Below are positions 1,742 to 12,786 of a stretch of 14,244 bases of DNA, piece after piece. The DNA comes from a virus. Lineage: Duplodnaviria > Heunggongvirae > Uroviricota > Caudoviricetes. The position numbers and the translations under genes were made by a program. The DNA lies in the IMG/VR virus record IMGVR_UViG_3300029080_000085; one strand, written 5' to 3'. The notes under the pieces are model-generated. The model ran no database searches. It saw only the letters and a list, made by a program, of their open reading frames with translations, and was not told the DNA's origin. Within the stretch, counting starts at the first letter, position 1, and every line of letters starts with the position of its first letter.

Positions 1742-2794
1742 TTATTTCCCCACCAGCTCGTTTATCTCTTTCACTGTCTGGTTAAACCGCTCTGACTCAA
1801 GCTCAACACCTAAGGCCCGACGCCCCAGCGCCATTGCTGCTTTTATTGTGGAACCGGATCCCATAAAAAAATCAGCAACCAGATCACCAGGTCGACTACT
1901 GGCATTGATTATTTGCCGGAGCATATCCGCAGGTTTCTCACACGGATGTTTACCCGGGTAGAACTGAACGGGTTTATGCATCCAGACATCGGTATAAGGC
2001 ACGGAGACTGATACGGAGAAATAGCGCCGGAGAGATTTAAACTCATCCAGCAATTCAGAATATTTGCGATTCAGTGAATCATAAGATGCCACCAGCTGGT
2101 GGTGTGGTTGTTCCAGTTGTTGTTCCTGAAACTTCTCTGCCGCTATACGGGAAAACAGTGCCTGTAACTTCCGATAGTCAGCCTCATTCGGCAACTGCCA
2201 CTGACTGGCACCAAACCAGTGGGAAACCATATTTTTCTTACCTGTGGCTTCGGCAATTTGTTTTGCCGTTATACCCAGTTCGGCACGAGCATCCCTGAAA
2301 TACGATATCAGCGGTGCCATTATGTGCTGTTTGAGTTCCCTTTCTTTTGCCGCATAGCCGTCACTTTTGCCGCGATATGGCCCCTGGTAATGTTCAGCAA
2401 ACAGAACGCGCTCTGTGGCAGGAAAATATGCGCGCAGACTTTCTTTATTACACCCATTCCAACGTCCGGACGGCTTCGCCCAGATGATATGGTTAAGCAC
2501 GTTGAAACGTTCACGCATCATGATCTCAATATCAGATGCCAGGCGATGCCCACAGAACAGGTAAAGGCTTCCGGCAGGCTTTAACACCCGCCAGAACTGG
2601 GCCAGACAGTGGTCCAGCCACTTAAGGTAATCTTCGTCCCCTTTCCACTGATTGTCCCAGCCGTTGGGTTTCACCTTGAAGTACGGCGGATCGGTAACAA
2701 TCAGGTCAATGGAATCATCAGGCAGGGACTGAATAAAATGCAGGCAATCAGCGTTGATTAAATCAACACTGTTTATTTTTACAGTATTTTTCAT
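1742..2794 (-). CDS. DNA methyltransferase (beta-class N6-adenine/N4-cytosine family), no adjacent recognisable restriction enzyme
   Basis: 350-aa ORF with motif IV DLIVTDPPYF near the N-terminus and motif I FFMGSGSTIKAAMALGRRALGVELE near the C-terminus (order IV then I). Confidence 0.85.
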   Translation of the reverse strand: MKNTVKINSVDLINADCLHFIQSLPDDSIDLIVTDPPYFKVKPNGWDNQWKGDEDYLKWLDHCLAQFWRVLKPAGSLYLFCGHRLASDIEIMMRERFNVLNHIIWAKPSGRWNGCNKESLRAYFPATERVLFAEHYQGPYRGKSDGYAAKERELKQHIMAPLISYFRDARAELGITAKQIAEATGKKNMVSHWFGASQWQLPNEADYRKLQALFSRIAAEKFQEQQLEQPHHQLVASYDSLNRKYSELLDEFKSLRRYFSVSVSVPYTDVWMHKPVQFYPGKHPCEKPADMLRQIINASSRPGDLVADFFMGSGSTIKAAMALGRRALGVELESERFNQTVKEINELVGK

Positions 2795-6596: not shown

Positions 6597-6986
6597 TCAG
6601 GCAGCTGCACCCGCCGTTTTCTCGTACTTACTGATAGTGATCTCGACCTTCCCTTCCGGGATAACCGGTCCCCACTCCACCAGCATTCTTTTCACCTGAC
6701 TGTCGTCTTCCCACACCCCCGCGTGGGTCAGGGCGTCAAACAGCGCCTTGTTATAGTTGTCCAGATCGCGGATCCTGTTATCCGGAGGAAACAACACGAT
6801 CTCCACTGAAGCAGGTGCCGACGTTGGTTTCGGCAGACGACGTAACTGCTCAACTATTGCTGCGCACGCCGCGCTCTGGAATTTTCGCCCCGCCGCGCTT
6901 ATCAGGCTCTTACCAGCAAACGCCCCTTTGTTGGGGTGTCGCCAGTACGTGTTCACGCTGGGCGGAAAAGGCAGGATCAGCTTCAT
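6597..6986 (-). CDS. rusA: Holliday junction resolvase RusA
   Basis: 129-aa ORF with RusA hallmarks: LPFPPSVNTYWRH near the N-terminus, RDLDNYNKALFDALTHAGVWEDDSQV catalytic region; ATGA overlap with upstream ORF. Confidence 0.85.
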   Translation of the reverse strand: MKLILPFPPSVNTYWRHPNKGAFAGKSLISAAGRKFQSAACAAIVEQLRRLPKPTSAPASVEIVLFPPDNRIRDLDNYNKALFDALTHAGVWEDDSQVKRMLVEWGPVIPEGKVEITISKYEKTAGAAA

Positions 6987-7253
6987 ACTTTCAGGCCCCT
7001 CTCATGTAACCAGTGGGTTGCACGCAGCCTTGCGTTTTCCTCACCGGCAAGCAGTGAGCGGATAATCCCGACCGCCTCGCTGTCGTCGTCCTTCACCGCG
7101 GTATGAAGCGTGATGCCCCGGGCCACGCCACGCTTTATCGTGATGACGCCTTTTTTCTCCAGTGCGCGAAGATGCTCCACCGCTGCATTCACTGAACGGT
7201 ACAGGAAGCGCAATCAGTTGCGAGCGACGGTAGTGTGTTGTTAAACTGTTCAT
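6983..7253 (-). pseudogene. Frameshifted/truncated LexA-like winged-helix DNA-binding gene; possible deletion scar at the expected replication-module position
   Basis: ATG 7253 overlaps the CII-like stop (ATGA) and encodes MNSLTTHYRRSQLIA...; a second frame beginning after a TGA encodes LRFLYRSVNAAVEHLRALEKKGVITIKRGVARGITL, matching the LexA helix 3 and wing, and ends ATGA-coupled to rusA. No single frame spans both parts. Confidence 0.35.
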
Positions 7254-7813
7254 GCGTTAGTTTCTCCACAGTCACGACACGCCACGGCGCCCGGAGCTGC
7301 ACACTCGCGGGCGTCATTACTTTCTGAAATGCAAAAAATTTTGTAGACCAGTGCTGCATGCTCCTGCAGCTTCGAAATTGAGAGGTACAACTCGTCGTTA
7401 ATTGCTGTCTTCTCATGCGGTTCCACTACACCGTCTTCAATTGCTGAACGAATCTGTTTTGAATAACTGCCGATCTGTTCAATGACCTCCAGCAGGCGTT
7501 GGTTGATATCGGCGTTGTCCACATCCTCGACGTCAGGAAGAGACACAAAGACGCCATTTGCAGACTGCGCCACAGCATCAGCAATGAAGTGAGTGCCACC
7601 AGCACGCTGTAAAACCATTGCCCATCCCAGCGGGAAAATCTGATCGCCATCTGCACGAAGGCGGTTGAATAAAGCGTTTTCTGTTACATCGAGCCAGTCA
7701 GCCGCTTCAGCGTAACCACCCGGCAACGCCGCGATAGTTTTTCTGACAGCTTTCACGTACCACTCAGGCTGTTTTTCTATTTTCCAGTGATGCTTACCCA
7801 CGATTAGCCTCAT
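7250..7813 (-). CDS. CII-like regulatory protein (YdaT / phage 186 CII-like family)
   Basis: 187-aa ORF directly downstream of the cro-like gene; central region (LFNRLRADGDQIFPLGWAMVLQRAGGTHFIADAVAQ) resembles 186-CII-type regulators as recalled. C-terminal tail may be extended by rearrangement. Confidence 0.5.
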   Translation of the reverse strand: MRLIVGKHHWKIEKQPEWYVKAVRKTIAALPGGYAEAADWLDVTENALFNRLRADGDQIFPLGWAMVLQRAGGTHFIADAVAQSANGVFVSLPDVEDVDNADINQRLLEVIEQIGSYSKQIRSAIEDGVVEPHEKTAINDELYLSISKLQEHAALVYKIFCISESNDARECAAPGAVACRDCGETNA

Positions 7814-7844
7814 CGTTCTGTGGTTAAAAATTGAAAGTGTTCTG

Positions 7845-8045
7845 CTAATCTTTCGGATAGATATCCGGTCTTAAGTCAGATTTCGTAATTGCACCTGACG
7901 TGCATTGCTCAAGTTTTTTAGCCAGCACAAAACTGGCTTTTTTATAGCCATTGAAAACCAGCCGTAAGTAGCCAGGTGTTGAGCCAACTTTTCCGGCCAA
8001 CTCGCCCTGCTGTTCTTTGGTTAAAGAGTCCCAATACGCTTTCAT
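7845..8045 (-). CDS. Cro-like HTH regulator (YdaS family)
   Basis: 66-aa ORF MKAYWDSLTKEQQGELAGKVGSTPGYLRLVFNGYKKASFVLAKKLEQCTSGAITKSDLRPDIYPKD with the LRPDI motif; SD GGAGGT 9 nt upstream; divergent from the cI-like gene. Confidence 0.7.
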   Translation of the reverse strand: MKAYWDSLTKEQQGELAGKVGSTPGYLRLVFNGYKKASFVLAKKLEQCTSGAITKSDLRPDIYPKD

Positions 8046-8135
8046 ACAATATGTACCTCCGGTGTACATATTACATGATTGAAATGAACCTTCAAGATAC
8101 TTGTACCTTAACGGTACAAGGGTTTTAATTTCGTT
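8046..8135. promoter_or_regulatory. Divergent immunity control region (OR-like): two perfect operators TGTAC-N7-GTACA plus candidate pR and pRM
   Basis: Operators at 8052-8068 (TGTACCTCCGGTGTACA) and 8102-8118 (TGTACCTTAACGGTACA). Candidate pR on minus strand: TTGAAG (8095-8090), 16 nt, TAATAT (8073-8068). Candidate pRM on plus strand: TTGTAC (8101-8106), 17 nt, TTTAAT (8124-8129), placing the start near the cI ATG. Confidence 0.5.
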
Positions 8136-8810
8136 ATGAAAACAATCCATGACATCCGGCGGTCTAACGCCAGAAAACTGAGAGATGGTGTTGGCGGGAA
8201 TTCTTCCTTTGCCACTATGATTGATCGCGAGCCAACCCAGACCAGCAGGTTTATGGGAGATGGTGCTACTAAAAATATCGGTGACAGCATGGCACGACAC
8301 ATCGAAAAATGTTTCGACCTGCCTGTCGGATGGCTCGATCAAGAACACCAGACAACGAACATCACAAAAAAACCTGATGTTTCAATCACTAATAAACAAA
8401 TCACATTAGTCCCTGTCATATCATGGGTACAGGCCGGAGCATGGAAAGAAGTTGGATATTCTGAGGTTGATTTGAGCACAGCAGAAACGTATCCCTGCCC
8501 TGTACCCTGTGGGGAAATGACTTATATCTTGCGGGTGATAGGTGATTCAATGATTGATGAGTACCGCCCGGGAGACATGATTTTTGTCGATCCTGAAGTA
8601 CCTGCCTGCCACGGTGACGACGTTATTGCATTGATGCACGATACAGGTGAAACCACCTTCAAAAGGTTGATAGAAGATGGGACACAGCGTTATCTCAAAG
8701 CGTTAAACCCAAACTGGCCTGAGCCTTACATTAAGATCAACGGTAATTGCTCTATAATTGGTACAGTGATTTTCTCAGGAAAACCAAGAAGATACAAAAT
8801 CAAAGCCTAA
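8136..8810 (+). CDS. cI: CI-like prophage repressor with C-terminal LexA-type S24 peptidase domain
   Basis: 224-aa ORF; C-terminal S24 signature (VIGDSMIDEYRPGDMIFVD ... FKRL) with Ser/Lys dyad context and candidate cleavage site QAG-AW; N-terminal DNA-binding region; no SD upstream. Confidence 0.85.
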   Translation: MKTIHDIRRSNARKLRDGVGGNSSFATMIDREPTQTSRFMGDGATKNIGDSMARHIEKCFDLPVGWLDQEHQTTNITKKPDVSITNKQITLVPVISWVQAGAWKEVGYSEVDLSTAETYPCPVPCGEMTYILRVIGDSMIDEYRPGDMIFVDPEVPACHGDDVIALMHDTGETTFKRLIEDGTQRYLKALNPNWPEPYIKINGNCSIIGTVIFSGKPRRYKIKA

Positions 8811-8822
8811 TCAATGTTTATG

Positions 8823-8846
8823 AACCTGCTTCGGCAGGTTTTTTTA
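8823..8846 (+). terminator. Intrinsic terminator after cI
   Basis: ACCTGC-TTCG-GCAGGT hairpin followed by TTTTTTT. Confidence 0.6.
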
Positions 8847-8849
8847 TAC

Positions 8850-8893
8850 TTGACAATGTACCTTTGAGATACATAATGTACCCAAGCGAAACA
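8850..8893 (+). promoter_or_regulatory. pL-like promoter with overlapping operator half-sites (OL-like)
   Basis: TTGACA (8850-8855), 16-nt spacer, CATAAT (8872-8877); operator-like TGTACCTTTGAGATACA (8857-8873) inside the spacer and a weaker TGTAC-N7-AAACA at 8877-8893. Confidence 0.5.
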
Positions 8894-8966
8894 ACGAACA
8901 GGCAGGACGCCCACGAAGTAGCCGCCTGGGGCATATGAAGTCCAGGATGATTCGTTAGCAACAAAA

Positions 8967-9000
8967 AAGCGCCCTACAGGACGCTTAGCTCTTTAACAAT
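8967..9000 (+). promoter_or_regulatory. nut-like antitermination element: hairpin plus boxA-like sequence in the pL leader
   Basis: GCTCTTTAACAAT (8988-9000) matches the rrn-type boxA core (TGCTCTTTAACAAT as recalled); preceded by hairpin AAGCG-N10-CGCTT (8967-8986). Confidence 0.45.
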
Positions 9001-9044
9001 CTGGTCCCCATCAACAAGTAACTGATAACTTGAGGAGATGTGAA

Positions 9045-9251
9045 ATGCACAAAACAGAACCCAAAATCGTCGCGCCTGGCTACACAGATGAGGAAATTTA
9101 TGAGTGGATGACAAAGAAGCTGGCAGCTATAAACCAGCTTCGTGAAGTGCTGTCTTATCGACAGGAAACAATAGACTCCTTAAAAAAACTGGATCAGGAA
9201 ATCACGGTTTTATCACAGGATGTTACTTTAGATATTGTGCAGACAAATTAG
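9045..9251 (+). CDS. Hypothetical 68-aa acidic protein, first ORF of the pL-like transcript (not N-like)
   Basis: SD GAGGAG 6 nt upstream of ATG 9045; predicted helical/coiled segment (LAAINQLREVLSYRQETIDSLKKLDQEITVL); lacks an arginine-rich motif. Confidence 0.45.
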   Translation: MHKTEPKIVAPGYTDEEIYEWMTKKLAAINQLREVLSYRQETIDSLKKLDQEITVLSQDVTLDIVQTN

Positions 9252-9657
9252 GATCCCATTCATTTTCGTCAAAATCATCAAAGTGATGAATTTGTGATCT
9301 CCAGTCTCGATAATCTAAAAATTTCTGGGCGGTTACGCTTATTTTATCAAGTGTGAGTTCATCCTGAATTGAAAGAAGAAGTTCATCAAATTTCATCTCA
9401 TTAATCTGTTTTGGCATCCAGTGATGCTTCATCAGAATAAGGTGAACCAGAGCCTTTTTCCCATTCAACTGATTATAGGGAGTGCCGAATTTCTTCCGGT
9501 GCTCATGTAAGACAAGGTCCAAAAGAGTAAGTAATGTTGCCCTTGATTCAACTTTGCTTATTTCGACTGATGACACTACCCCACTGATTTCAATGCCCCG
9601 ATACTTTCCAACATTTTCACAGTGGGATTTGTACAGCGTATAGATATTACCGGACAT
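9223..9657 (-). CDS. Hypothetical 144-aa protein; AT-rich accessory gene antisense to the pL operon
   Basis: SD AAGGA 7 nt upstream of ATG 9657; visibly AT-rich; His-rich segments (LVLHEHRKK, MKHHWMP, RDWRSQIHH); 3' end overlaps the convergent 68-aa ORF by 29 bp. No family recognised. Confidence 0.6.
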   Translation of the reverse strand: MSGNIYTLYKSHCENVGKYRGIEISGVVSSVEISKVESRATLLTLLDLVLHEHRKKFGTPYNQLNGKKALVHLILMKHHWMPKQINEMKFDELLLSIQDELTLDKISVTAQKFLDYRDWRSQIHHFDDFDENEWDPNLSAQYLK

Positions 9658-9672
9658 TTCTTTTCCTTTTGC

Positions 9673-9721
9673 GTTGTTGGGGATAACCAGATTAACCGAA
9701 TCCTTGTTGTTGGGGAATAAC
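9673..9721. repeat. Two direct repeats GTTGTTGGGGA(A)TAAC upstream of the 144-aa gene
   Basis: Copies at 9673-9687 and 9706-9721, 33 bp apart start to start; on the minus strand they read GTTAT(T)CCCCAACAAC, resembling a DnaA-box-like TTATCCCCA. Confidence 0.4.
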
Positions 9722-9943
9722 TAGGTCCACCTCGCCTGATGTGGCTAAAAGCAGGCACATAACAGCTAAGTATTTTCAACCAGAGAGAATCCTTAGCGTT
9801 GTGGTGAATGCGGCTCAGCGCACGCGGGTTAAGGTTGAGGCTGACAGTCGACCTTCTGTGGATACCCACCCGCCTGGTGTGCAACCTTCGCCAGGCACCG
9901 GGAGGCACCCGGCACCACAACTTTATGCTGTGTGTAGTCTTGG

Positions 9944-9988
9944 CGGTACCAGCTTGTACCCTTGCTTCCGGCTGGTACCGTCCTTTTT
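9944..9988 (+). terminator. Strong hairpin with U-tract inside the GC-rich block (candidate tL-type terminator)
   Basis: Perfect 10-bp stem CGGTACCAGC / GCTGGTACCG (9944-9953 / 9971-9980), 17-nt loop, followed by TCCTTTTTA. Confidence 0.45.
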
Positions 9989-10201
9989 ACAAAACAGAGA
10001 AGAGCATCACCGGACGACGGGCTCATAACCCAATCCATCCGGGCGGCTGCCACCGCAGGTGTTCTTCTCTGTTTTGTGGAGAAACTAACCGCCCCTACGG
10101 GGGCATTTATGGAAATGTAATTGACTCAATAATCGCCGGACGGTGAGGGCTTCCTTTTACCGGAATTCAGCGCGGTGCAGCGCATATACGTGGAGAACAA
10201 A

Positions 10202-10738
10202 ATGTCATTTATTAAAACTTTTTCCGGGAAGCATTTTTATTATGACAGGATAAATAAAGACGACATCGTTATTAACGATATCGCGGTTTCCCTTTCAAAT
10301 ATCTGTCGCTTTGCAGGACATCTTTCACACTTCTACAGTGTCGCCCAACATGCGGTGCTTTGCAGCCAGCTGGTGCCGCAGGAATTTGCTTTTGAAGCTT
10401 TAATGCATGATGCAACAGAAGCATATTGCCAGGACATCCCCGCACCACTGAAACGACTTCTTCCTGACTATAAACGGATGGAAGAAAAAATAGACGCCGT
10501 AATCCGTGAGAAATACGGGTTACCTCCTGTTATGAGCACGCCAGTGAAATATGCCGATCTCATTATGCTGGCAACCGAACGCCGCGATCTCGGGCTTGAT
10601 GATGGCTCTTTCTGGCCTGTGCTGGAAGGTATCCCGGCAACAGAGATGTTCAACGTGATTCCACTGGCTCCAGGCCATGCCTACGGGATGTTTATGGAAC
10701 GCTTTAACGAATTATCGGAGTTACGCAAATGCGCATGA
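10202..10738 (+). CDS. HD-domain phosphohydrolase (YfdR-like)
   Basis: HD-type metal-binding motifs (RFAGHLSHFYSVAQHA ... LMHDATEAY...D); SD GGAG upstream of ATG 10202; first gene of a coupled operon ending in xis-int. Confidence 0.8.
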   Translation: MSFIKTFSGKHFYYDRINKDDIVINDIAVSLSNICRFAGHLSHFYSVAQHAVLCSQLVPQEFAFEALMHDATEAYCQDIPAPLKRLLPDYKRMEEKIDAVIREKYGLPPVMSTPVKYADLIMLATERRDLGLDDGSFWPVLEGIPATEMFNVIPLAPGHAYGMFMERFNELSELRKCA

Positions 10739-11091: not shown

Positions 11092-11396
11092 TGACCACTT
11101 TTACCGACAAAGAACTGATTAAAGAAATTAAAGAGCGTATCAGCAGCCTTGACGTGCGAGACGATATTGAGCGCCGTGCTTATGAAATCGCACTCCTATC
11201 TCTGGAAGTAGAACCAGATGAACGCGAAGCTTATGAATTATTCATGGAAAAGCGTTTCGGTGACTTAGTAGATCGTCGGAGAGCAAAAAACGGCGATAAC
11301 GAATACATGGCATGGGATATGACTCTCGGTTGGATCGTCTGGCAGCAACGAGCTGGTATCCATTTTTCAACAATGTCACAACAAGAGGTGAAATAA
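11091..11396 (+). CDS. Hypothetical phage ea-region protein (101 aa)
   Basis: ORF translationally coupled to both neighbours (TAATG overlaps). Confidence 0.5.
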   Translation: MTTFTDKELIKEIKERISSLDVRDDIERRAYEIALLSLEVEPDEREAYELFMEKRFGDLVDRRRAKNGDNEYMAWDMTLGWIVWQQRAGIHFSTMSQQEVK

Positions 11397-11746
11397 TGGA
11401 GCCATACAGCCTCACACTCGATGAGGCCTGTCATTTTCTCAAGATATCCAGACCGACTGCCATTAACTGGATACGCACAGGGCGTCTTCAGGCAACACGC
11501 AAAGATCCCACTAAGAATAAATCTCCTTACCTCACAACACGACAAGCCTGCATTGCGGCTCTTCAGTCTCCGCTGCATACTGTCCAGGTGAGCGCGGGTG
11601 ATGGCATAACAGAGGAAAGAAAATGTCACTCTTCCGCAGAGGTGAAATATGGTACGCCAGTTTCACATTGCCGAACGGTAAAAGATTTAAACAGTCTCTT
11701 GGAACAAAGGACAAAAGGCAGGCGACAGAACTCCATGACAAGCTAA
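11396..11746 (+). CDS. xis: Excisionase (P22-type Xis)
   Basis: 116-aa [43 protein letters not shown]..., winged-helix Xis-like; SD AAGAGGTGA; 3' end overlaps the int start, as in lambda/P22. Confidence 0.75.
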
Positions 11747-12786
11747 AGGCTGAAGCATGGCGGGTCAGCAAACTTGGTGAAATACCTGATATAACGTTCG
11801 AGGAAGCTTGTGTCAGGTGGCTTGAAGAGAAAGCACATAAAAAATCACTGGACGATGACAAAAGCCGGATCGGATTCTGGCTTCAACATTTCGCAGGAAT
11901 GCAACTAAGAGACATTACTGAATCAAAAATTTATTCAGCAATGCAGAAAATGACGAACCGGCGTCATGAGGAAAACTGGAAACTCAGGGCAGAAGCATGC
12001 AGAAAAAAAGGGAAACCTGTTCCAGAATACACGCCAAAACCAGCGTCCGTTGCAACGAAGGCTACGCATCTTTCATTTATAAAGGCCCTACTAAGAGCCG
12101 CAGAGCGTGAATGGAAAATGCTGGATAAGGCACCAATTATTAAAGTGCCTCAACCAAAGAATAAACGGATCCGCTGGCTGGAGCCCCATGAAGCACAAAG
12201 GCTGATTGATGAATGTCCGGAGCCATTAAAGTCTGTTGTTGAATTTGCACTGGCAACAGGCTTAAGACGCTCGAACATCATCAACCTTGAATGGCAACAA
12301 ATAGATATGCAGCGCCGGGTGGCATGGATAAACCCGGAAGAGAGTAAATCAAACCGCGCAATTGGCGTTGCGCTGAATGATACTGCATGTCGCGTATTGA
12401 AAAAACAAATCGGGAATCATCACCGTTGGGTATTTGTGTACAAGGAAAGCTGTACCAAACCAGACGGAACGAAAGCGCCAACAGTAAGGAAGATGCGGTA
12501 TGACGCAAACACAGCCTGGAAAGCGGCGCTGAGACGGGCTGGTATTGATGATTTCAGATTTCACGACTTGAGACACACCTGGGCAAGTTGGCTGGTTCAA
12601 GCCGGAGTCCCGTTGTCAGTGTTACAGGAAATGGGAGGCTGGGAGTCTATCGAAATGGTTCGTCGATATGCTCACCTTGCACCTAATCACCTTACCGAAC
12701 ACGCACGGCAAATAGACTCGATCCTGAACCCATCGGTCCCAAATTTGTCCCAGTCAAAAAATAAGGAAGGTACTAATGATGTGTAA
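11623..12786 (+). CDS. int: Tyrosine integrase (P22 Int-like) targeting tRNA-Thr
   Basis: 387-aa ORF beginning [48 protein letters not shown]; catalytic region [39 protein letters not shown] (R...HxxR...Y); ends 14 nt from the tRNA. Confidence 0.9.

Follow-up and report, generated by a model that had tools for sequence, protein, structure and literature searches.

How does a lambdoid prophage that encodes no N protein carry transcription along its early left operon? The question was raised by positions 8850-9251 of the viral record IMGVR_UViG_3300029080_000085, a stretch of 14,244 nucleotides (nt) that was analysed at its full length and is called the window below. The interval is best explained as the leader of a cI-repressed pL operon in an N-less lambdoid prophage of the SfV/SfIV/e14 type. 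This leader apparently carries a widespread structured RNA that has so far gone undescribed (8893-8956, plus strand, 64 nt), followed by a boxA of the type found in ribosomal RNA (rrn) leaders. A first-pass annotation of the same DNA had described the promoter, a hairpin, boxA and the first open reading frame (ORF), and made no mention of the structured RNA, although no other element of the leader is as conserved or as informative.

A structured RNA at the head of the pL transcript

The structured RNA begins about 10 nt into the pL transcript, between the promoter and the hairpin at 8967-8986. It is closed by helix P1 (8893-8898 paired with 8951-8956), and contains the 3-bp mini-hairpin P2 (8901-8903 with 8909-8911) and the 5-bp hairpin P3 (8925-8929 with 8942-8946). 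The two hairpins are connected by a near-invariant joiner of 13 nt, CACGAAGUAGCCG (DNA CACGAAGTAGCCG, 8912-8924); P3 carries the conserved loop GGCAUAUGAAGU (DNA GGCATATGAAGT, 8930-8941), and a second joiner, AUGA (DNA ATGA, 8947-8950), leads back to P1. The loop of P2 varies in length among family members, with GGA present in all of them (AGGAC, AUGGA, AAGGAAA, AGGAA, AGGAU). Most members have another GGA at a distance of 40 nt, in CCAGGAUGA; ZF40, locus L099 and pAEv1818 lack this second copy. The covariance model R1 scored 93.5 bits (E 7e-31) at this site.

In an alignment of 57 distinct sequences (A1), 94.6% of the cells were standard pairs, compared with 70.1% after shuffling (0 of 500 shuffles reached the observed value) and at most 43% when the partners were slid. 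Eleven of the 14 pairs changed on both sides; all variable pairs lay in P1 and P3, and P2 was constant. RNAalifold, run without a supplied structure, returned the same helices. A second set (A2), made up of matches in bacterial genomes with no overlap with A1, gave 93.6% paired cells compared with 69.5%, again with 11 of 14 pairs; its members were found with a 20-base pattern taken from the family, and their alignment to R1 biases this set towards the structure.

The 14 bases GCCCACGAAGTAGC were identical in every BLAST homologue, from Escherichia phages to those of Aeromonas and Providencia. Such invariance across distant hosts suggests that the RNA has a conserved host machine as its partner. 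No Rfam 15 family matched at 8893-8956, either at the gathering threshold or at E values up to 5. RefSeq annotates nothing over the element in E. coli, among the matches listed, or over the copy in the K-12 prophage e14. A full-text literature search with the invariant sequence returned nothing relevant, though the older literature may mention it.

Several more specific identities were considered and rejected. A hammerhead or other ribozyme core is a poor fit, as the joining strands (CA, CACGAAGUAGCCG, AUGA) do not agree with CUGANGA/GAAA, and no Rfam ribozyme matched. An anti-small-RNA of the AgvB type was suggested by the CA-rich flank, yet AgvB is in Rfam and gave no match here. A tertiary contact, in which GCC in the joiner would pair with GGC in the loop of P3, had weak support (at the one variable pair, CG 41, UG 11, UA 2, other 3). 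It was also observed that some copies lack most of P3 while keeping P1, P2 and the invariant joiner (L020, 7055-7115, 62 bits; L164, 6702-6755, 36 bits); in L020 the leader hairpin and boxA are still present after the P3-depleted element.

Distribution and position of the element

A megablast search of positions 8800-9700 against phage records showed that about 65 nt past the promoter are also present in phages that otherwise have nothing in common with the window in this interval (SfII, phiNP, a Klebsiella phage, Pantoea AH07, Yersinia YeP1-3, ST64B, mEp460 and Pectobacterium ZF40). A sensitive search with 89 nt returned 51 records, including the Gifsy-like mEp237, SPN3UB and SEN34 and an Aeromonas phage, and also matched T5-like Providencia phages, in their terminal repeat. 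As the T5-like phages are lytic, the element is not confined to temperate phages.

In viral contigs the exact 14-mer GCCCACGAAGTAGC was found in at least 120 stretches, most of them with the whole element. The 20-base pattern occurred in 111 stretches of bacterial contigs sampled at one genome per species, and when R1 was run on 100 of these, 97 matched over the full length with 69 bits or more, each locus having a single match. The genera represented included Escherichia, Klebsiella, Enterobacter, Citrobacter, Kosakonia, Kluyvera, Yersinia, Serratia, Xenorhabdus, Photorhabdus, Pantoea, Atlantibacter and Buttiauxella. Among 5426 complete E. coli genomes the element was present in 1845 (34%), with up to 4 copies per genome. 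In total, 206 distinct sequence contexts were collected. One copy lies in e14 of K-12 MG1655, between ymfK/cohE and ymfJ (NC_000913.3, about 1,202,108-1,202,180, minus strand; locus L251, 6109-6181, minus strand), where it scored 75.3 bits and is unannotated.

The position of the element was equally constant. In all 16 annotated lambdoid phages examined it lay on the strand of the repressor, 100-300 nt downstream of the repressor gene, and headed an operon with kil, recE/recT/gam/exo and, farther on, xis and int. A promoter matching at least 9 of 12 consensus bases was found within 60 nt upstream in 91 of 202 contexts, compared with 2 of 173 control segments. The gap between the -10 hexamer and P1 was mostly 12-15 nt, so that the element usually begins about 5-10 nt into the transcript. 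In the T5-like phage PR1 (L014, 1498-1600, plus strand; also L089) a strong promoter precedes it, it opens the series of pre-early genes ending in A2, and boxA follows it directly.

Breakpoints of phage mosaicism were found to flank the element on both sides: SfV shares 8800-8956 with the window and then diverges, and Kati, 569R4 and 689R6 share it from 8893 onward only. The first ORF after the element had 137 different N-termini among 176 contexts. Together with the breakpoints, this variability indicates that the element does not depend on a phage protein linked to it.

A second conserved leader block (approximately GCGCAG[CU]AGGU..AACGUUCCGC[CU][AG]GCC.GGCGA.AAGG) was seen 10-90 nt past the element in L012, L013, L015, L017 and about 60 other loci; the Gifsy-like phages in which it follows the element are mEp237, SPN3UB, SEN34 and PHB10. 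In L063 it lies between promoter and element (2640-2690, minus strand), and the same upstream flank occurs in L034, L078 and L117. A tandem duplication of the element was ruled out for the loci where this block comes first, with one element per locus. The second block looks like an independent module.

The pL promoter and its operators

The near-consensus promoter that had been proposed downstream of cI was confirmed. It is a sigma-70 promoter of the pL type, TTGACA-N16-CATAAT (8850-8877, plus strand; -35 at 8850-8855, -10 at 8872-8877), which matches the consensus at 11 of 12 positions and was the top match within 7700-10300. It begins 9 nt beyond the intrinsic terminator of the transcript of cI, a ymfK-like gene of the LexA family (8822-8841, plus strand; an 8-pair stem followed by a T run), whose counterpart is annotated as a terminator in SfV. 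Transcription would start near 8884. Promoter-like sites in the region were not more frequent than expected by chance (4 found, 5.0 expected), and the assignment therefore rests on the quality, position, operator and conservation of this site. The identical promoter precedes ymfJ in e14 of K-12.

An operator in the promoter spacer, which had also been predicted, was located at 8857-8873 (OL, TGTACC-N5-GATACA), spanning the spacer and the -10 hexamer. The 17-bp inverted repeat TGTACC-N5-GGTACA occurs twice in the cI-cro interval (8052-8068 and 8102-8118), and the pL copy differs from it by one mismatch. A weaker copy at 8877-8893 covers the start region. These operator copies place the promoter under repressor control, and the earlier pL-like reading, a repressor-controlled promoter with a boxA-bearing leader, is thus supported.

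An rrn-type boxA downstream of the element

The boxA core reported by the first-pass annotation appears genuine. The motif GCTCTTTAACAAT (8988-9000, plus strand) is a presumed NusB/NusE site, and its core GCTCTTTAACA (8988-8998) fits perfectly the gamma-proteobacterial boxA consensus GYTCTTTAANA given by Baniulyte et al. 2017 (PMC5725501). It was the sole match to this consensus in the window, where 0.04 were expected and 7 of 200 shuffles contained at least one. The site lies about 105 nt past the expected start and 32 nt past the structured RNA. The 13-nt GCTCTTTAACAAT is presumably the same as a stretch found in rrn leaders.

The motif also recurs in relatives. A consensus boxA was found within 300 nt downstream of the element and on the same strand in 34 of 206 contexts, in 31 of them within 60 nt; in 1.68 Mb, no boxA lay in the 300 nt upstream, 1 lay farther upstream and the opposite strand had 14. 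The spacers that contain it are unrelated: it stands after the hairpin in contexts of the window type, without a hairpin in Xenorhabdus and Kluyvera prophages, and in PR1, where CGCTCTTTAAAAAT starts 9 nt after the element. Its presence on the same strand in spacers that are unrelated indicates that boxA is selected there in its own right. It would load Nus factors here. A second boxA downstream of cro, where lambda-like organisation might place one, was not found in the window.

Past boxA, the sequence differs among relatives. In most of the hairpin-type relatives boxA is followed by AATCTGG. No GU-rich run resembling UGUGUGGG, as in boxC, was evident after boxA.

Absence of N and the first ORF

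The first-pass annotation had found no recognisable N protein, and this was borne out: no N-like protein is encoded, and relatives have been reported as N-less. No lambda N, P22 gp24 or put-like sequence was detected in 216 element loci (1.79 Mb), and no N is annotated in the 16 lambdoid phages mentioned above. In the SfIV genome paper, SfII, SfV and SfIV are described as without N, and SfI, Sf6 and SfX as having it (PMC3851460); the former three carry the element, and the latter three were not among its matches. A home-made scan of the downstream ORFs for arginine-rich motifs was set aside, as it returned mainly spurious frames with GTG starts and no recurrent N-like family.

The first ORF of the operon, orf68 (9045-9251, plus strand), corresponds to the PGAP coding sequence WP_000549623.1 and matches phrog_1744, a family of unknown function, over its full length (E 6e-35). 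As had been noted before, it is an acidic protein of 68 aa without an arginine-rich motif: it has 12 acidic and 8 basic residues, 2 of them Arg, and a net negative charge. It showed no Pfam, PADLOC or NCBIfam antiterminator match.

The leader hairpin and the convergent gene

The hairpin before boxA is present at 8967-8986 and contains a bulged A. Folded from the plus strand, it is weak (-7.5 kcal/mol) and has no U tract; on the minus strand it reaches -11.5 kcal/mol and is followed by U6, which gives an intrinsic terminator (AAGCGTCCTGTAGGGCGCTT plus TTTTTT). In the relatives the hairpin always has an A run before it, i.e. a U tract on the other strand, and all 24 hairpin-bearing contexts had a minus-strand ORF of 129-216 aa, from several unrelated families, just past boxA. 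Ten boxA-bearing contexts had no hairpin. Given the A run, the convergent ORF and the good minus-strand score, the hairpin is best read as the probable terminator of a variable cargo gene inserted head-on in the left operon. A role as a boxB-like partner of boxA is unsupported by this pattern and by the ten hairpin-free contexts.

In the window the convergent gene is orf144 (9223-9657, minus strand), annotated by PGAP and belonging to the ECs1072 family of phage-associated proteins (NF033230, 157.8 bits; phrog_5286). The 3' ends of orf68 and orf144 overlap by 29 nt, and the two always travel together as a module. Other prophages have different convergent ORFs, also of 129-216 aa, in the same slot past the leader hairpin and boxA. 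No PADLOC match was obtained for the orf68/orf144 region. The slot past the leader looks like a hotspot of cargo expressed in lysogens.

Terminators ahead of the distal genes

Two strong terminator-like structures stand on the pL strand between orf144 and a yfdR-like gene, with xis and int beyond. The first, at 9942-9990, has a 13-pair stem (9942-9982) followed by CUUUUU (-23 kcal/mol, z -3.95) and forms the 3' end of a region resembling the small RNAs (sRNAs) STnc100 and PasD. The second is a long hairpin of 83 nt followed by UUUUGUGG (UUUUG), at 9992-10082 with the stem reaching 10074 (-40.4 kcal/mol, z -4.87). The SfV annotation likewise places a terminator behind the first ORF of the left operon. 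A home-made count of terminators in the 2 kb downstream compared with the antisense strand was discarded as too permissive, since the antisense control gave the higher number.

The STnc100-like sRNA itself was scored at 9768-9991 (plus strand) with 43.4 bits, compared with a gathering score of 47 (E 2e-7), and hairpins continue to 10105. The region occupies the place of yfdP/yfdQ in close relatives. STnc100 is reportedly related to the prophage sRNA PasD (bioRxiv 10.64898/2026.05.13.724894).

In K-12, late induction during the SOS response has been found for ymfJ and also for intE, at the distal end of that operon, and was attributed to the CI-like repressor (PMC11002266). This late induction agrees with long-range transcription from the promoter that K-12 and the window have in common.

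The prophage and its orientation

The window holds a lambdoid prophage whose integration site is tRNA-Thr(CGU), beside proA. Its nearest relatives are SfIV and SfV of Shigella and, in E. coli, prophages of the e14/CPS-53 type. The cI repressor (8136-8810, plus strand) has a Peptidase_S24 domain and is annotated as ymfK/LexA family. In the opposite direction run cro (8045-7845), a CII-like gene after it (7813-7250) and, later in the minus-side operon, a Q-type late antiterminator (4784-4005). As these genes point away from cI, the plus strand past cI is the pL side, which extends to xis and int at its far end (11312-12786).

The right operon (6983-7813, minus strand; compared with L002 and L139) looks shortened when set against that of SfIV and E. 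coli 1428. Its order is the CII-like gene, a fragment of 76 aa and rusA, and the replication genes of the relatives are absent. For this reason the prophage may be defective.

Comparison with known antitermination systems

To our knowledge, the phage cases of antitermination by RNA come essentially from a single family, which comprises put of HK022 and close relatives. The element shares with HK022 put and the putL-like RNA of HK639 a cis-acting structured RNA of about 65-70 nt, placed just past the early left promoter of an N-less lambdoid phage with terminators ahead (PMC9378689). HK639 also provides a precedent for a single site, as one putL-like RNA is annotated in its left operon, in the same position as the element.

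The likeness does not extend to the molecules themselves. Short-query blastn gave only chance matches of 9-12 nt, and R1 had no match at HK022 putL or putR or at the HK639 putL-like RNA, three sequences that resemble each other and not the element. In the structure solved by cryo-electron microscopy, two long stems of put form a V, stem I contains a triplex, and a closing helix is lacking (PMC9378689), whereas in the element a closing helix encloses a 3-bp mini-hairpin, the invariant joiner of 13 nt and a single 5-bp hairpin. Moreover, put targets RNA polymerase in cis by way of the beta-prime zinc-binding domain and needs neither Nus nor other host factors, whereas the element is often followed by boxA. 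Membership of the put family was therefore rejected on sequence, topology and model score, and a comparison of the leader with HK022 put, which the first-pass annotation had suggested, revealed no similarity.

The rrn leader (boxB-boxA-boxC) and the suhB and CRISPR leaders resemble the present one in having boxA in an untranslated leader, with structured RNA before it and long untranslated RNA after it (PMC5725501, PMC7665894). Unlike the rrn leader, the leader studied here belongs to a phage early operon under a repressor, has no evident GU-rich boxC, and has before boxA a hairpin that reads as the terminator of the convergent gene. In suhB, boxA represses expression rather than promoting it, and the sign of the boxA effect here is thus not certain.

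The N-nut systems of lambda, P22 and phage 21 occupy the same genomic slot, have boxA in common with it, and presumably serve the same goal, read-through of early terminators. Unlike them, the present leader has no N, no GNRA-like boxB after boxA and no second site in the right operon. The only hairpin predicted past boxA (CAAGU/ACUUG, with an 8-nt loop) overlaps the ribosome-binding site. As a hint of dependence on Nus factors, the mEp collection has been described as Nus-dependent (PMC11893012), and two carriers of the element, mEp237 and mEp460, bear the mEp name. The early expression of N-less lambdoid phages has usually been left open or guessed to be put-like (e.g. PMC12315714).

A possible RNA-based antitermination leader

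The interpretation that we put forward, tentatively and at slightly below even confidence, is that the region is an N-independent, RNA-based antitermination leader, in which boxA and the Nus factors would add protection against Rho. The element fills the slot of N/nutL or putL in phages from which N is absent, which counts for antitermination. Of the two possibilities raised by the first-pass annotation, antitermination through RNA or host factors is the better reading, and the structured RNA is the likelier RNA component.

According to this proposal, the structured RNA would fold at the RNA exit channel and convert the elongation complex to a terminator-resistant form, doing the job that put does in HK022 by means of an unrelated sequence and fold. 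The boxA would load the NusB/NusE complex and shield the transcript from Rho, the two signals together taking the place of N and nutL. Such protection would be needed while the pL transcript runs, untranslated and antisense, through the convergent cargo gene. Transcription from pL could then pass the hairpin at 8967-8986, orf144 in antisense and the terminators at 9942-10082, and reach the yfdR-like gene, xis and int. Complexes of boxA and Nus factors are known to protect untranslated RNA from Rho (PMC5725501, PMC7665894), and the need to cross the cargo gene antisense and untranslated would supply a reason for boxA. The action of the RNA on polymerase, the binding of Nus factors at boxA and the antitermination outcome are what we infer from these arrangements.

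Several observations weigh against this interpretation. The element is present as a single copy per phage, with no second copy in the window and none downstream of pR, unlike HK022, and the analogy with put rests on position only, since there is no similarity in sequence, topology or model score. The structured RNA alone was not more stable than its shuffles and its minimum-energy fold differs from the consensus; because the folding energy of the single sequence is unremarkable, the fold rests on covariation. A-C mismatches were commoner than G-U pairs in the helices, so that the strand was assigned from the orientation of promoter and genes and not from pair types. The structured RNA and boxA are not obligate partners, as boxA was present in only 17% of the contexts. 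In at least 4 contexts (L034, L063, L078, L117) another conserved block precedes the element, and in L063, the only one of them read completely, about 75 nt of transcript come before the element. Finally, the terminator count described above was uninformative.

Alternative functions of the leader

The alternative that survives best, and which we regard as doubtful, is that boxA alone is the antitermination (anti-Rho) signal, as in the rrn and CRISPR leaders, and that the structured RNA is a stable 5' fragment, a sponge for a protein such as CsrA, or an element of processing or stability. The perfect consensus of boxA and its enrichment downstream of the element agree with this, yet 83% of the contexts have no boxA and all of them keep the element. 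A CsrA sponge would account for the GGA in every P2 loop and for the second one in most members, as two spaced GGA motifs resemble the paired CsrA sites of the SELEX consensus; against it, the second GGA is missing from the three members named above, and the 14 invariant bases are left unexplained. For a processed or stable fragment, a terminator or common processing site would be expected after the element, and none was found, the sequence diverging right past P1. A 5' stabiliser needs only a simple hairpin at the extreme 5' end, whereas P1 here follows a single-stranded tail of about 5-9 nt.

It is unlikely, though conceivable, that the element is a sensor, either an aptamer of the riboswitch kind or a site where a host protein or RNA binds, that tunes early left expression to host physiology and feeds the decision between lysis and lysogeny or the decision to excise. 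As is typical of aptamers, covarying helices surround invariant joining strands and a conserved loop, and the element has been kept across distant hosts. Such a sensor should be coupled to an expression platform, but none is conserved: the bases after P1 differ, there is no common alternative pairing with a terminator or a Shine-Dalgarno sequence, the distance to the first ORF is very variable, and no Rfam riboswitch matched.

That orf68 is an unconventional small antiterminator acting with the leader, the other possibility raised by the first-pass annotation, is very improbable: it is the first ORF past the leader and belongs to a conserved phage family (phrog_1744), but it is net negative, has no arginine-rich motif or known domain, travels as a module with the convergent orf144, is absent from SfV and e14, which have promoter and element, and is replaced by many other first ORFs after the element and boxA, as the 137 N-termini among 176 contexts attest. 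Equally remote is an action of the conserved inverted repeats as DNA (a protein site or a single-stranded DNA hairpin), as compensatory changes would keep inverted repeats equally well in DNA, and the excess of A-C mismatches over G-U pairs suits it, but the fixed orientation and short, fixed distance past the promoter in unrelated backbones, including T5-like phages, the unpaired and asymmetric invariant bases, and the association with boxA, an RNA signal, on the same strand only, all speak against it.

Significance

The element is a concrete candidate for what allows early operons to be expressed in N-less lambdoid phages, and it occupies that slot in hundreds of phages and prophages. The e14 copy in K-12 makes the leader directly accessible to standard genetics. 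It is possible, although we hold this with a little more reserve than the antitermination function itself, that the element represents a second class of antiterminator RNA that modifies polymerase, with a structure unrelated to that of put and a far wider distribution, from a third of complete E. coli genomes through phages of many Enterobacterales and of Aeromonas to lytic T5-like phages, and that it could cooperate with boxA and the Nus factors as an RNA-only equivalent of N-nut. If polymerase is indeed modified, the elongation complex would have a new natural ligand in the element, and the Nus/boxA machinery a new partner. Otherwise there would still be a phage RNA, widespread and hitherto undescribed, in which the invariant core of 14 bases implies that the host target is conserved. 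The finding on boxA would also extend regulation by Nus factors to the early operons of prophages, where the suggested reason is that transcription may have to cross convergent cargo genes without termination by Rho.

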